Positions 33,981 to 45,265 of a stretch of 64,000 nt of DNA are shown here, piece after piece. The stretch's first letter is position 1, and every line of letters begins with the position of its first letter. Source of the DNA: an uncultured Bacilli bacterium. Lineage in GTDB: Bacteria > Bacillota_I > Bacilli_A > RF39 > UBA660. Position numbers and translations under genes: made by a program. Under the pieces are notes generated by a model. The model saw only the letters and a program-made list of their open reading frames with translations. It did not search any database and was not told the origin of the DNA. Location: positions 2,893 through 66,892 of the forward strand of contig CANQPC010000002.1 in the NCBI GenBank assembly GCA_947625625.1. The letters run 5' to 3'.

Positions 33981-34619
33981 TTAAGCAGCAGCAGCAGTAA
34001 ATGAAGCAGTAACACCTTGACCGTCGGCAGCACTATAACTTACTGTTCCAGTAAATCCACCACTATTAGTCTCATTTTGCGCTTTATTTGTTTCATTAAT
34101 ATAAAGCATGACATATATAGTATGTGTAGCAGAACCTGCAACAGAAATACTTTCTTCTAAACTAGAAACAGTTTTTGCATTTTTTGCATTATTGCCTAAC
34201 ACTGTAGGACTAGTAATTTTAGTCCATTTTAAATCAGCCATACTTGCAGCAGTTAAATTTAACGTACCATTTAAAACAACTGTTGAGTTACCAGTATTTT
34301 TAACATCAATTTTATAAACTTGACAGACCGTATTTCCATTTTTATCGACGCAAGACTTACTTTTAGATGCAGTATCGCCAGCTAATCCTTTACTTAAGTC
34401 AGCTTCTAGTATAGGAATAAGACCACCTTTAGCATCTGTAGTCACAGAAGTAACAGTTAATTGTAAACCAACTGTAGCAGTTTGACCTTTAATCGTATCA
34501 CTATCATCATCAGTAGCAGTAAAGAATGCAAATGTAGCTCCAATAATAGCCACTACTAAGGTAGCAACACCTATAACCGCATAAAATATTCCAGGTTCCT
34601 TTCTGTTATTTTCGACCAT
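33981..34619 (-). CDS. Secreted TasA/camelysin-like protein with a SipW-type N-terminal signal (paralog A1)
   Basis: MVENNRKEPGIFYAVIGVATLVVAIIGATFAFFTATDDDSDTIKGQTATVGLQLTV, plus GGLIPILE, the CVDKNGNTVC loop, YKIDVKNTGNS, IYVMLYINET and GTVSYSAADGQGVTASFTAAAA. A close paralog of 34806..35444. Confidence 0.65.
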   Translation of the reverse strand: MVENNRKEPGIFYAVIGVATLVVAIIGATFAFFTATDDDSDTIKGQTATVGLQLTVTSVTTDAKGGLIPILEADLSKGLAGDTASKSKSCVDKNGNTVCQVYKIDVKNTGNSTVVLNGTLNLTAASMADLKWTKITSPTVLGNNAKNAKTVSSLEESISVAGSATHTIYVMLYINETNKAQNETNSGGFTGTVSYSAADGQGVTASFTAAAA

Positions 34620-34645
34620 TTTTTCAATCCTCCTTTACAATAATA

Positions 34646-34654
34646 ATTGTAACA
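34646..34654 (-). promoter_or_regulatory. Candidate extended -10 element (TGTTACAAT) for paralog A1
   Basis: TGnTACAAT lies about 15 nt upstream of the AAAGGAGG RBS. Analogous elements precede the other three paralogs. Confidence 0.35.
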
Positions 34655-34759
34655 AATAATATTTAAAAAATCAATATTTTATCAAATTTTTTCATTATAT
34701 AATTTTCTCAATGCTTTGCATAATAAAACATTTCAAAAAATACTATATTCATTACTACC

Positions 34760-34797
34760 AAAAAATTAAAAATATAACAATATTTAATTGTTATATT
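34760..34797 (-). terminator. Terminator after fibre-like paralog A2
   Basis: AATATAACAAT/ATTGTTATATT stem followed by a T-rich tract on the minus strand. Confidence 0.65.
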
Positions 34798-34805
34798 TTT
34801 AAGCA

Positions 34806-35444
34806 CTACGCACCAGCTGTAAATGAAGCAGTAACACCTTGACCGTCAGCGGCGTTATAACTAACTATTCCAGTAAATTGACCATTATTAGAAGTATTTT
34901 GCTCTGTACTAGTCTCATTAATATAAACCATAACATATATCGTATGTGTATCGCTTCCATTAACTGAAATACTATCTTCTAAGTTAGTAACTTCTTTGGC
35001 ATTTTTTGCATTTTCACCTAATTCTTTTTCTCCATTAAGCTTAGTCCACTTTAAATCTTTTATAGTTTCAGCATTTAAAGTCAATGTCCCTTTTAAAACG
35101 ACAGTTGAATTACCAGTATTTTTAACATCAATTTTATAAACTTGACAAACTGTATTTCCGTTTTTATCGAGGCAAGATACATTTTCAGTTGCACTATCAC
35201 CAGCTAGTCCTTTTTCCAAGTCAGTTTCTAGTATAGGAATTAGTCCACCATTAGCTTGGCTTGTCGTTACAGGAGTAACAGTTAATTGCAAACCAATTTC
35301 AGCAGTACTACCTTGAATTGTTTCCACATCAGTATCAGAAGCACTAAAGAATGCAAATGTAGCTCCAATAATAGCCACTACTAATGTAGCAATACCGATA
35401 ACTGCGTAAAATACTCCAGGTCCCTTTCTGTTATTTTCATCCAT
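34806..35444 (-). CDS. Secreted TasA/camelysin-like protein with a SipW-type N-terminal signal (paralog A2)
   Basis: The likely start is MDENNRKGPGVFYAVIGIATLVVAIIGATFAFFSASDTD after AAAGGAGAG; the track ORF extends to 35468. It has the same motif set as A1 (CLDKNGNTVC, YKIDVKNTGNS, GIVSYNAADGQGVTASFTAGA). Confidence 0.65.
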   Translation of the reverse strand: MDENNRKGPGVFYAVIGIATLVVAIIGATFAFFSASDTDVETIQGSTAEIGLQLTVTPVTTSQANGGLIPILETDLEKGLAGDSATENVSCLDKNGNTVCQVYKIDVKNTGNSTVVLKGTLTLNAETIKDLKWTKLNGEKELGENAKNAKEVTNLEDSISVNGSDTHTIYVMVYINETSTEQNTSNNGQFTGIVSYNAADGQGVTASFTAGA

Positions 35445-35542
35445 TTTTTTTACAACTCTCCTTTCCAATAATTATAATAATAAATAATATTCTTGATATT
35501 TTTTTATTTTAAATTTAGTTCATAATGAACTTTTATTTTTTA

Positions 35543-43219: not shown

Positions 43220-43235
43220 AATTTTTTTCCTCCTT

Positions 43236-43973
43236 CTATATTTTTCCAAGTTCTTTATAAACATTTATTATCATATCGTTATTAACATAATAACAAACTT
43301 TATTTATCTCCATCAGATTAAAACTTCCATATACTTTATCATCTTCGATATACATATTCATAATCTGTGGCAACTTTTCTCTAATTCTAATAATATATTT
43401 TTCTTTTAATTTATTAAATTCTTCTCCGGTCATTTCTTCTTCAGTTATAGCATCAGTTACTTTTTCTCTTATATCGTCTACTTTAATATAATCATCAAAT
43501 ATACTTTCCGCTATCTCCTTATAACTGACATCTATTTTTTTTAATAGTTCTTCATTACTAATTACTTTCTTTTCAAATAAATCGATATTCAAAGAAACTA
43601 CATCTTCATAATCGACAGGTTCTTCATGTATCAAATATTTAATTTTAACCGACAAAATATTATCGTATATTCCTTTAGCAATATCGACATCCATAATCTC
43701 TTTATCGGAATAGTTTTTTTGTCTTTCAAGAAAATCATTATTAATATCATCACTAATATTTTCTATGTAAACCATATCACCCTTAACTTTAACATAATAA
43801 TCAGCATTAAAATGCATTATATTATCATAACTGGGTAGAGAACCATATTTATGATAATAAGCATAAATCCAATAGAAAAACATTGAAATAACAATACTAA
43901 TTACCATTGCTAAAACTAGTAAAAATCTTCGGTTGTCATTCTTATAAATATTAACCTTTTTCTTCTTTTTCAT
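43236..43973 (-). CDS. N-terminally anchored protein, first gene of the F1-like ATPase cluster (orphan)
   Basis: [16 protein letters not shown] followed by one TM helix, then a 200-aa acidic domain. No family recognised. Confidence 0.55.
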
Positions 43974-43996
43974 GTTCCCACTTTCCTACTATATCA

Positions 43997-44025
43997 AGTA
44001 TACCATTTTCAAAAATAGAAGTCAA
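43997..44025 (-). promoter_or_regulatory. Sigma-A-type promoter for the F1-like ATPase cluster
   Basis: On the minus strand, TTGACT is followed by 17 nt and then TATACT, about 20 nt upstream of the GGAAAGTGGG RBS and ATG of the 43973 gene. Confidence 0.6.
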
Positions 44026-44029
44026 TTAC

Positions 44030-44067
44030 TTTTTCAAAAAAGAAAAGATAGAGATTAGACTCTATCT
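44030..44067 (-). terminator. Rho-independent terminator after the 44087..45265 gene
   Basis: AGATAGAG-tctaat-CTCTATCT hairpin followed by TTTCTTTTTT on the minus strand. Confidence 0.7.
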
Positions 44068-44086
44068 AAATTACTTAAATATCATA

Positions 44087-45265
44087 TTATTTTTTTAATT
44101 TCTCAATACAAGCTTCTACCCCTACTTGCTTATCGATACAATTTTCTATTCCCTCGATCATTTCAGAAGAAGCGTTTTCCAAGCAGTCAGTAAAATTAAC
44201 TCCCCCAGTCAAATCTCCTAAATTTACAATAACTATCTCGACAATCCAACGTACTGCAAATACAAGTACTGCTGATAATATTCTTTTCAAGAATAATTTA
44301 AGATTTTTTTTCTGTGCCATATCATCATTTGAAACAACTGACTTTGAAAAATCGATCATTCCAAATATTATTAGTCCTATAGGAATTACTATAACTACAA
44401 TATTTAAAATAAGTTTCGCAAAATAAATAACTTTAAGTATATCAGGATTTAAACAGGCACTTACAATTACAGAATTACCATGAATTTCATTATTATTACC
44501 ACTATTACCACTATTGCCATTATCGCCGGTATTACCATTATTACCAGTATTACCATTATTACCGGTATTACCATTATTACCAGTATTTCCACCTGGTTTT
44601 TCTTCTTGAATACCCGAAACTAAATCACAGACATTATTCGAATAATATTTTCCATAATCAGAATAATTTTCAAGTTCCAAGCTATCAGCTAAATTCTTAA
44701 AATAACTAGCAGAAGTATTATTTAATTTATTTCCAAAAATATCCATATCACTGATACTTTCATATTTCGAATAACCAAAGTATACATCGTAAGCATCCAT
44801 CTGAGTCTCAAAATGTATCCACTCAGCTCCATTAGAAGCATTTAATATATCTCTAGAACATTGAAATACAATATTTTTAGGAATACTAAACTTACCACTT
44901 AATACGAGAGCAGCAATATACATCATTTCTCCCCTTTTGTTATTGCTTGCATTAATCGTACTTTCGAGACTTTTATCTCTATATGTACTATAACCTTGAT
45001 AAGTATTATCACTAATATGTTTTATTTTATCGAGCCAAGTAGAATAATTACTATTTTTAACATTATTTAAAATAATATTAGCGGTCGTAAGTCTTACAAA
45101 AAAGTTTGCATCTTCCGCATAATAATCAAGAGCACCAGTTTCTTTATAAACAATTTTAGCAATTTCTTTAACTGTATTAATTTCACAAGCACCTTCCGCT
45201 TTGACTACCCTTATTCCTCCACAAAAAAGAAAAATTCCCAGTAATAATATAACTATTTTCTTCAT
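44087..45265 (-). CDS. Secreted/membrane mosaic protein: SleB/CwlJ-like cell-wall-hydrolase-like domain, Gly/Asn repeat, 3 TM helices, Cys-containing tail
   Basis: Signal peptide, then EIAKIVYKETGALD...RLTTANIILNNVKN (resembles the Hydrolase_2 pattern A..V..E........A.VI.NRV). This is followed by GNTGNNGNTGNNGNTGNNGNTGDNGNSGNSGNNN, three hydrophobic helices, and a C-terminal CLENASSEMIEGIENCIDKQVGVEACIEKLKK. Confidence 0.5.
   Translation of the reverse strand: MKKIVILLLGIFLFCGGIRVVKAEGACEINTVKEIAKIVYKETGALDYYAEDANFFVRLTTANIILNNVKNSNYSTWLDKIKHISDNTYQGYSTYRDKSLESTINASNNKRGEMMYIAALVLSGKFSIPKNIVFQCSRDILNASNGAEWIHFETQMDAYDVYFGYSKYESISDMDIFGNKLNNTSASYFKNLADSLELENYSDYGKYYSNNVCDLVSGIQEEKPGGNTGNNGNTGNNGNTGNNGNTGDNGNSGNSGNNNEIHGNSVIVSACLNPDILKVIYFAKLILNIVVIVIPIGLIIFGMIDFSKSVVSNDDMAQKKNLKLFLKRILSAVLVFAVRWIVEIVIVNLGDLTGGVNFTDCLENASSEMIEGIENCIDKQVGVEACIEKLKK
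44494..44590 (-). repeat. In-frame short tandem repeat encoding the (G-N-x) tract
   Basis: ATTACCATTATTACCAGT and ATTACCATTATTACCGGT units are repeated head to tail on the plus strand. Confidence 0.8.

Follow-up and report, generated by a model that had tools for sequence, protein, structure and literature searches.

F1-like ATPases have been described as specific to the mycoplasmas (PMC3369863, PMC11864180, PMC12994834). The F1-like X0 ATPase (MSC_0618/0619), named Type 3 in two of these studies (PMC12994834, PMC11864180), shows genetic linkage to the surface MIB-MIP system, which requires this ATPase; the X0 cluster consists of seven genes, including those for a protein with 12 transmembrane (TM) helices, an 87-kDa protein with a signal peptide and two TM helices and a 19-kDa cytoplasmic protein, and has no c or b subunit (PMC12994834). 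The G1-ATPase of Mycoplasma mobile drives gliding via the Gli proteins (PMC11864180). We analysed a stretch of 64,000 nucleotides (hereafter, the window) from an uncultured bacterium of the Bacilli (GTDB RF39, UBA660; assembly GCA_947625625.1, contig CANQPC010000002.1, positions 2,893 to 66,892), which contains a cluster of genes for an F-type rotary ATPase. Judging from its sequence, this ATPase appears to be unable to couple to ions, with a rotor and a catalytic head that appear to be preserved, and it belongs to a widespread ion-blind family that is apparently undescribed in the literature searched, in which we found nothing on this ATPase family or on RF39-type ATPases. Repurposed F1-like motors apparently extend beyond the mycoplasmas, to a distinct family found across uncultured gut Firmicutes and labelled as an ordinary ATP synthase.

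The cluster lies in a block of 14 co-directional open reading frames (ORFs) running along the minus strand from 45265 to 33981, in a window with a G+C content of about 28%. All features described below are on this strand, unless otherwise stated. In the order of transcription, the block consists of H392, a hairpin with a U-tract, a promoter-like site, the genes X245-c-b-like-alpha-beta-epsilon-like-Y171-gamma-Z309, a 70-nt spacer, T1-T2-T3, a terminator, a second promoter-like site, T4 and a final terminator. An earlier reading of the letters and ORF translations (hereafter, the sequence-only reading) had proposed a block in this order, with a nine-gene F1-like cluster within it, and both proposals were borne out: the genes from X245 to Z309 number nine and overlap or lie a few bases apart, and the alpha, beta, gamma and c subunits match F-type models in Pfam and NCBIfam, with every NCBIfam equivalog score falling below its cut-off.

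The beta-like catalytic subunit (39551..40909; 452 amino acids, without an N-terminal extension; PF00006, 6.3e-66) scored 451.3 bits with the NCBIfam atpD model (cut-off 462.85). The alpha-like subunit (40887..42245; 452 amino acids, with a shortened C-terminal domain; PF00006, 3.5e-67) had atpA as its best NCBIfam match, below the cut-off (404.8 vs. 554 bits for PRK13343 and 362.3 vs. 484.45 for TIGR00962), and the gamma-like rotor shaft (38011..38805; PF00231, 4e-23) scored 52.4 bits with TIGR01146 (cut-off 194.45). The c-like subunit (42974..43219; PF00137, 1.1e-7) has 81 amino acids when read from an ATG with an AGGAGG Shine-Dalgarno (SD) sequence, in an ORF that reaches 43264, and its NCBIfam score was 18.6 bits (cut-off 43.95). 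As read from the translations, the catalytic set of alpha and beta is intact (Walker A, catalytic Glu, Arg finger and DELSEED-like loop), with the motifs GDKKTGKT and SVSRLGG in alpha, and Walker A and EELSEDD in beta. The closest solved relatives of beta are genuine F1 betas (375-386 bits; 375 for a Bacillus-type beta), the M. mobile G1 beta (PDB 9io5) scoring 294. Conservation among relatives is strong, with identities of 84-89% for beta and 88-97% for c, and beta has relatives that are 91% identical. These beta relatives come from metagenome-assembled genomes (MAGs) of uncultured gut ‘Bacilli/Tenericutes’, including Firmicutes bacterium CAG:321, Clostridium sp. CAG:302 and a complete MAG of 1.46 Mb.

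What the cluster lacks is a path for ions. In an alignment with the c subunits of Bacillus subtilis and Escherichia coli, which were entered by hand (as were the TasA and CwlJ references below, so that comparisons using any of these sequences are leads rather than tests), helix 2 of the c-like subunit had Ala in the column of the B. subtilis Glu and E. coli Asp61, and contained no acidic residue. When each GTDB species was represented by one genome, scanning yielded 80 related loci, in which genes were called and clustered; all were from MAGs or metagenome contigs, and the comparison covered the loci, rather than whole genomes. The carboxylate column was occupied by A, S, T, V or L in all 75 loci in which c was read, at G+C contents of 24-58% and in both Bacilli and Clostridia, and the cytoplasmic loop of c, GRNPE(T/V)K, was conserved in each of these loci. 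No match to the a subunit (ATP-synt_A) was found among the ten cluster ORFs, and no such family occurred in the maps of the 80 loci; similarly, no match to delta (OSCP) was obtained for the cluster ORFs with Pfam or NCBIfam, and none of the locus maps contained a delta gene. With a c subunit devoid of the carboxylate, no a and no delta, ATP hydrolysis would be unable to couple to ion flow, and the absence of the carboxylate from every locus read argues for a selected state of c, rather than decay. The sequence-only reading had described the c-like subunit of the window as unable to bind ions; this view holds, extends to 75 loci and applies to the ion path as a whole. The retention of the c-ring raises the question of the role of a rotating, ion-blind membrane ring. 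A ...NP motif, which reads LLFFNP in most loci, is also conserved at the C-terminus of c, where helix 2 has its outer end; an extracytoplasmic partner could dock there.

These features bear on the possibility that the cluster encodes a housekeeping F1Fo ATP synthase or ion pump, divergent or decaying, followed by unrelated genes. The public record does label beta ‘F0F1 ATP synthase subunit beta’, the score of this subunit is just under the atpD cut-off (451 vs. 463 bits), its nearest solved structures are genuine F1 betas and a second ATPase was not shown for the genome by a comparison that covered loci only. Nevertheless, we consider this explanation highly improbable: a and delta are missing, the only c of the cluster has no carboxylate in helix 2, a state conserved in 75 loci that argues for selection over decay, the gamma, c and alpha subunits lie far below the equivalog cut-offs, and the gene order is non-canonical and includes the family-specific X, Y and Z. 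Metabolic reconstructions counting this cluster as an ATP synthase in these abundant gut lineages are probably wrong.

The remaining genes of the cluster were assigned by topology, size and position. The b-like stalk protein (42214..42981) was placed by topology and position; it has an N-terminal TM helix, a charged helix and an additional C-terminal globular half, matched neither ATP-synt_B nor OSCP in Pfam and NCBIfam, and belongs to a family found in 74 related loci. The epsilon-like protein (39304..39558), identified from its position and its size of 84 amino acids, about 50 fewer than a typical epsilon, had no Pfam match; its family was found in 76 related loci. Y171 (38786..39301) is a family-specific membrane protein with five TM helices, occupying the slot expected for a stator membrane subunit, and had no match in Pfam, NCBIfam or PDB. 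Homologues of Y171 were present in 73 loci, covering all three of the layouts described below, and its family is small, with 69 representatives at E <= 1e-3 among 1.84 billion proteins. An identity as a degenerate a subunit was rejected, as the 73 members contain no conserved Arg, nor any other conserved charged residue in the TM helices, and no PDB or Pfam match was obtained. X245 (43236..43973), the first gene of the ATPase operon, encodes one N-terminal TM helix and an extracytoplasmic domain of about 200 residues; this ORF had no Pfam or NCBIfam match. Z309 (37140..38069; likely start at the ATG of MDKYDY, around 38018) encodes a cytoplasmic coiled-coil protein with an acidic tail and no Pfam match, and links gamma to the T array. 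It is homologous to two families, f27 and f68, occupying the same position in layout G2 (hhalign, 96.2% and 96.5%).

Three layouts, designated G1 to G3 (labels unrelated to the name of the G1-ATPase), were distinguished among the relatives. Layout G3 (28 loci, 25-58% G+C) has the order f9-f8-c-b-alpha-gamma-beta-epsilon-Y-f7-f10, and its loci are labelled Clostridia, Oscillospiraceae, Lachnospiraceae, Bacilli or ‘Mycoplasmatota’. Layout G2 (about 28 loci), f9-f8-f7-c-b-alpha-beta-epsilon-Y-gamma, corresponds to a sister clade with a beta about 70-77% identical to that of the window. Layout G1 (about 20 loci), (H)-X-c-b-alpha-beta-epsilon-Y-gamma-Z, is that of the clade to which the window belongs, and X245 is present in those G1 loci whose sequence extends upstream of c. 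X245 takes the slot of f7 in G2, but was kept as a positional analogue, rather than a homologue, because hhalign gave only 34%. The accessory families each have a single N-terminal TM helix and differ greatly in size (f9, about 1,700 amino acids; f8, about 500; f7, about 245; f10, about 2,800). ALK_LTK_GRD and GLUG motifs were found in f10, and no Pfam domain was detected in f7, f8, f9 or Y. The G3 ATPase (L051-L080, e.g. L054:98-21351) is thus flanked by the N-terminally anchored giants f9 and f10, together with f8 and f7; no homologues of these giants were found in the window. We take G3 as the older layout, on the basis of its breadth and near-canonical subunit order. Surface-protein genes neighbour the ATPase in every layout. 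In one G2 subclade (L024, L025, L028-L030, L032-L034, L036-L038 and L040; e.g. L030:13081-13308), the gene directly after gamma encodes a pilin with an Flp/class III signal (Pfam Class_IIIsignal, 26.7 bits), and genes for small membrane proteins come next.

The motor resembles the repurposed F1-like motors of mycoplasmas, with differences from each of them. Like the X0 ATPase, for which a canonical Fo ion path has not been described, it combines alpha-, beta-, gamma- and epsilon-like subunits with membrane proteins specific to the family, and it is linked to genes for surface effectors, which are analogous rather than homologous (T arrays and giant anchored proteins). Unlike X0, the cluster of which was compared by its description only, the window retains c and b, encodes the 5-TM Y, X and Z, and has another gene order; the scores with the NCBIfam models MSC_0618_beta (415.8 vs. 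a cut-off of 570) and MSC_0619_alpha (301.1 vs. 520) were also insufficient. The hosts differ too: those of the window type seem to be Bacillota with a cell wall, and possibly spore formers, as suggested by sortase-, germination- and CotE-type genes, some of which were read by eye. The M. mobile G1-ATPase (MMOB1660/1670, Type 2) similarly has F1-derived alpha, beta and gamma subunits, and the giant neighbours f9 and f10 recall its arrangement with the Gli proteins, which are large surface proteins. However, the scores with the glide_MMOB1660/1670 models were 364 (cut-off 600) and 369.3 (cut-off 850), the G1 beta (294 bits) is more distant than a genuine F1 beta (375), and the G1-ATPase forms cytoplasmic dimer chains without a c-ring and has a long N-terminal extension on beta, whereas the window family has a c-ring and a b stalk and no such extension. 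Some G3-type loci encode long alpha-like subunits, of 588-676 amino acids with extensions of 100-230 residues (L060, L064, L065, L067 and L070), which recall the extended subunits of the G1-ATPase, and an ORF of 1,416 amino acids occupies the alpha position in L061.

Canonical F1Fo is the closest sequence relative of alpha, beta, gamma and c, and shares with the window the c-b-alpha order, the RxPE-type loop of c and the catalytic motifs. The window departs from it in having no a or delta, a c without the carboxylate, an epsilon of 84 amino acids, a short alpha C-terminus, the extra X, Y and Z genes, and gamma at the end of the cluster. The N-ATPase (alternate F1Fo, with AtpQ/AtpR and an a subunit) was not matched either: the alt_F1F0 models gave 341.8 (cut-off 750.5) and 402.7 (cut-off 752) bits for alpha and beta, respectively, and 15.8 (cut-off 130.85) for c, and the window has no a subunit.

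The genes at the end of the block, T1 (36323..37069), T2 (35543..36271), T3 (34806..35468; probable start at the ATG at 35441) and T4 (33981..34619), encode four paralogues of 212-248 amino acids. They share a near-invariant hydrophobic segment at the N-terminus, the last residues of which are GATFA(Y/F)F(S/T), with positions T21, L22, V24, I26, G28, F31, A32, F34 and A36 invariant in 47 homologues. T1 and T2 scored 17.6 and 23.0 bits, respectively, with the SipW-type signal model TIGR04088 (cut-off 19), T3 and T4 giving weak scores of about 10 bits, and hidden Markov models of the T family matched T2 (2e-55), T3 (6.3e-72) and T4 (1.5e-70). An AlphaFold2 model of T1, based on a 47-sequence alignment, was a confident beta-sandwich (predicted local distance difference test, pLDDT, 82; core >90). 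The search with T1 returned 1,652 homologues, and the 119 full-length matches listed contained no Pfam domain. The family appears to be evolving quickly, since the closest non-self relative is 56% identical, vs. 91% for beta. The sequence-only reading had presented these proteins as four highly expressed TasA-like fibre subunits; four secreted paralogues with a SipW-type signal were found, but no similarity to TasA was detected in the mature domain. Peptidase_M73 matches in T relatives span residues 4-48 only, within the signal peptide, hhalign aligned just nine residues, at the cleavage motif, with the TasA sequence, and the matches of the T family profile to PDB sequences were confined to the signal peptide. 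As Foldseek gave a similar outcome (see below), T was rejected as a detectable TasA or camelysin homologue. A type IV-pilin- or archaellin-like identity was also rejected: the only sign of it was a weak profile match, within the hydrophobic N-terminus, to PDB 8fk7 (‘Flagellin’, E 0.21), and there was no class III signal match. A Foldseek comparison with viral structures was uninformative.

The gene context in relatives nevertheless suggests that T1-T4 are surface fibre subunits of the TasA-superfamily type. Besides minor subunits and a tip protein, loci for donor-strand fibres of this superfamily typically encode a dedicated multi-TM signal peptidase I and, as an accessory protein, DUF5305; the fibres form extracellularly, through donor-strand complementation, and need no ATP to do so (bioRxiv 10.64898/2026.01.04.697558). 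The T loci are like those of the superfamily (TasA-SipW-TapA; AbpX/AbpA/Tafi) in their SipW-type signal and their arrays of small beta-sandwich paralogues, and the arrays of relatives also hold a multi-TM Peptidase_S26 of 379 amino acids, DUF5305, a protein like a carbohydrate-binding module and a larger tip-like protein (622 amino acids, ALK_LTK_GRD/head-fibre-like). Peptidase_S26 (2e-6) and DUF5305 (2.7e-8) were found within the arrays of L084, L012/13 and L092-97, with a weak S26 match after the array of L047, a G2 locus. The family of the ALK_LTK_GRD protein (f60) was considered as a fragment of f10 and rejected, in the absence of BLAST similarity. The T loci are unlike superfamily loci in that no sequence or Foldseek similarity to TasA or other solved fibres was found for the mature domain, and in the absence of SipW and DUF5305 from the window, and no mention of a rotary ATPase adjacent to a TasA-superfamily locus was found in the literature searched.

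The sequence-only reading had proposed that the motor is coupled to the export, assembly or actuation of these fibres, to be checked by comparing related genomes. This check gave a divided result. In G1, T genes directly follow Z in 19 of the 20 species loci, 840-1,560 bp past gamma (2,460 bp in one case), the remaining locus having only 561 bp of downstream sequence. The outer flanks of the same loci vary, with topA/H, f55, f44 or f56 upstream and a superoxide dismutase gene, f14, f30 or f46 downstream. In G2, T genes lie within 10 kb in nine of the 20 loci with at least 3 kb of downstream sequence, and in six of these nine they directly follow gamma and one short gene, which is f27 in two loci and f75 or f36, without detected similarity to Z, in the others. 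The G1 count carries less weight than this recurrence in G2 subclades, because G1 is a shallow clade. In the reverse direction, most T-seeded metagenome loci with sufficient upstream sequence carry the ATPase, the G2-type order f8-f7-c-b-alpha-beta-eps-Y-gamma-f68-T-T-T being among those seen. T arrays without a visible ATPase were seen in L127, L136, L157 and L161; L021, L042 and L046 have the ATPase and a Z homologue, but no T, and in L152 an f9-like gene and f8 are preceded by T arrays.

The signals in the DNA point in two directions. No terminator was detected by fold scoring in the Z309-T1 spacer of the window (z -0.9), vs. AT-rich terminator hairpins after T3 (34761..34798; -13.3 kcal/mol, z -5.5) and after T4, at the end of the block (33925..33961; -13.3 kcal/mol, z -3.8), and the hairpin after H392 (z -2.1). 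The T1 promoter-like site is TTGTAA-17-TACAAT, with TG two bases upstream, and perfect AGGAGG SD sites precede T1, T2 and T4; among the genes of the ATPase operon in the window, only c has an SD site as strong as those of the T array. T4 has its own promoter-like site (34656-34685). The T array therefore has a promoter-like site of its own, with an extended -10 element, but read-through from the ATPase operon is possible, as no terminator follows Z.

Several findings weigh against a link between the motor and the T proteins. None of the 28 G3 loci and only nine of the 20 G2 loci have T genes nearby, leaving 11 G2 loci without them, and a metagenome locus, L129:4622-7927, has the order QueA-H-Z-T and no ATPase genes at all, an arrangement that could be either a natural deletion or the state preceding insertion of the motor; here H has 560 amino acids, GDSL lipase domain included, and Z is 55% identical. 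The Z-to-T spacer (37070-37139 in the window; the same spacer in L001-L043) contains, in both G1 and G2, a conserved extended -10 element (TTTGnTAtAAT, with the promoter-like TGnTATAAT) and a TAGGAGG SD, so that regulation shared with the ATPase is not required. Two further T-family paralogues with SipW-type signals (207 and 224 amino acids; 8933-9556 and 9556-10230, minus strand; T-family model, 2.5e-44 and 9e-35) lie 25 kb from the ATPase, indicating that the T family is dispersed in this genome. The signal peptidase and DUF5305 of relatives imply that the array encodes its own processing, with no need for a motor in export. In Foldseek, the T model retrieved only generic beta-sandwiches from PDB (TM <= 0.29), its 50 best matches including none from the TasA family, and the window has no SipW, as no S26 motif was found in it, and no DUF5305 among the ORFs scanned. 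Finally, the roles of b, X, Y and Z were inferred from their topology and position only.

It could be, on these grounds, that the motor is real and non-bioenergetic, but that the T genes are bystanders, forming an island of fast-evolving surface-protein genes at the 3' end of the operon, with X245, Y171, Z309 (f7-f10 in other lineages) or proteins encoded elsewhere as the true partners. In addition to the missing T genes, the separate promoter, the distant paralogues, the self-contained processing genes and the L129 locus, this explanation would account for the variation in T copy number, from one to six among close relatives, and for the Flp/class III pilin in the same slot in another G2 subclade, which suggests that this position may just readily accept genes for surface proteins. 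Against it, the Z-T junction has been kept in G1 and several G2 subclades while both outer flanks were reshuffled, T-seeded searches lead to the neighbourhood of the ATPase much more frequently than a genome size of probably about 1.5 Mb would predict, no terminator separates Z from T1, and surface-protein neighbours occur in all layouts. We regard the bystander explanation as possible, although rather doubtful.

A second alternative is that the motor powers the secretion or polymerisation of T through membrane and wall, by analogy with FliI/FliH/FliJ. Type III secretion systems contain an F1-related export ATPase. Like the window, FliI/FliH/FliJ and the type III ATPases are cases of rotary-ATPase relatives engaged in non-bioenergetic work at the envelope, the T genes adjoin the ATPase, and the unusual invariance of the hydrophobic segment at the T N-terminus might mean that a membrane machine recognises it. 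However, the FliI and type III ATPases are homo-hexamers with an export gate, whereas the window encodes alpha/beta paralogues, gamma, a c-ring and b: the hexamer would be hetero-hexameric, its scores with the FliI/SctN models (150-236 bits) are far below the cut-offs (380-720), the c-ring and gamma shaft have been retained, and there is neither an export gate nor a partner of the FliH/FliJ type. T genes are lacking from most of the ATPase family. Moreover, the T signal is of a standard Sec, SipW type, with the cognate peptidase encoded within the arrays of relatives, and TasA-type fibres form outside the cell without ATP, making an export role for T unlikely; as an explanation of the locus as a whole, we judge it very improbable. 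Of the earlier proposal, the coupling of the motor to surface proteins has thus gained support, and the export of TasA-like fibres has not; fibre coupling remains plausible.

We give about even chances to the explanation that we prefer, a non-bioenergetic F-type rotary ATPase performing mechanical work on envelope partners, among which T is included with less certainty. The alpha3beta3 head would turn the gamma/epsilon shaft, joined to the c-ring via the GRNPETK loop, with the b-like stalk and Y171 as a putative membrane stator. Rotation or torque would then act mechanically on membrane-anchored or extracytoplasmic partners: the single-pass f7, f8, f9 and f10 in the apparently older layout, and X245 and, less certainly, T in this lineage. 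T1-T4 would be exported by Sec and cut by a SipW-type signal peptidase, and the motor would anchor, tension, reset or remodel the surface structure built from T, without exporting it, much as has been proposed for the X0 ATPase and MIB-MIP (PMC12994834); the G1-ATPase and the Gli proteins (PMC11864180) form another parallel. The gene content, the missing ion-coupling residues and subunits, the breadth of the family and the linkage counts have been shown; rotation, the assignment of b, Y and X to stator and rotor, fibre formation and any coupling to T are, at this stage, inferred. If the coupling is true, the locus would offer a tractable way to learn how energy from ATP in the cytoplasm is passed to the outside of a Gram-positive envelope, would provide TasA-type matrix fibres with an unexpected active component, and may inform on the origin of the gliding and antibody-cleavage motors of mycoplasmas. 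More tentatively, and with less confidence than in the preferred explanation, we suggest that gut Bacilli and Clostridia harbour a family of motors without ion coupling, the rotation of which actuates giant anchored proteins or TasA-type fibres outside a walled cell, and that this family is a possible free-living source of the mycoplasma F1-like motors. If so, these motors would form a new class of mechanical actuators working across the membrane, which might serve adhesion, surface motility, or the tensioning or retraction of fibres.

H392 (44087..45265; ORF of 392 amino acids) precedes the cluster and encodes a secreted or membrane protein with a signal peptide, a conserved N-domain of about 190 residues, a G-N-T repeat linker and a C-terminal TM bundle. 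It had been read as a separate transcription unit with its own terminator, in keeping with the intrinsic-terminator-like hairpin and U-tract that follow it (44046..44067; fold -9.7 kcal/mol) and the promoter-like site before X245 (43997..44025; TTGACT-17-TATACT with TG, a consensus match only). The hydrolase domain of the SleB/CwlJ type also attributed to it, by contrast, found no support and was rejected. The Pfam and NCBIfam matches of H392 were collagen-like low-complexity matches only; no Pfam match to Hydrolase_2 or any other hydrolase was obtained for H392 (E <= 0.1) or for the N-domain with nine relatives (E <= 1), and PDB searches by phmmer and with the family profile returned nothing. 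The probability given by hhalign for the CwlJ sequence was 0.07%, a single-sequence AlphaFold2 model was unusable (pLDDT 30) and a homologue search with the N-domain returned no sequences. The resemblance is confined to a motif, LAKIVYxEvG...LTTAsVvLNNA, with an invariant Glu: E42, in the VYxE motif, is invariant in the alignment of the H family, in which the TM region is also conserved. Some H relatives have an additional C-terminal GDSL lipase domain. Some G1 loci have H upstream of X; in L129, H adjoins Z-T.

Downstream from T4, a gene of a PD-(D/E)XK transposase family (32867-33799, minus strand; Pfam, 3.7e-15) separates the array from the superoxide dismutase gene; as the latter directly follows the T array in several relatives, the transposase gene looks like a recent insertion. 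Elsewhere in the window, four paralogous surface proteins of 362-440 amino acids (24633-30007, minus strand) seem, as read by eye, to have a variant sortase sorting signal at their ends, made up of P(N/K/D)TGD, then a TM helix, then KKKIAAKAN. A sortase-like gene overlapping that of a pilin-like protein of 537 amino acids, with repeated domains and a C-terminal TM helix, was also recognised by eye (1137-3372, minus strand), and part of this region matched a domain of an f10 protein; these genes suggest a walled cell with sortase pili. Three genes on the plus strand (3595-7301) resemble those of a GerA-type germinant receptor (GerAA/AC/AB-like) and another resembles SpoIIP (22213-23226, minus strand), both as read by eye, and CotE is encoded near the ATPase cluster of a relative, L081; from such genes, the lineage may be spore-forming. 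Finally, the region from 15975 to 20864 (plus strand) encodes, as judged by eye, a MoxR-like AAA ATPase, a DUF58-like protein, vWA/BatA-BatB-like membrane proteins and a TPR protein, in an arrangement resembling a Bat-type operon.

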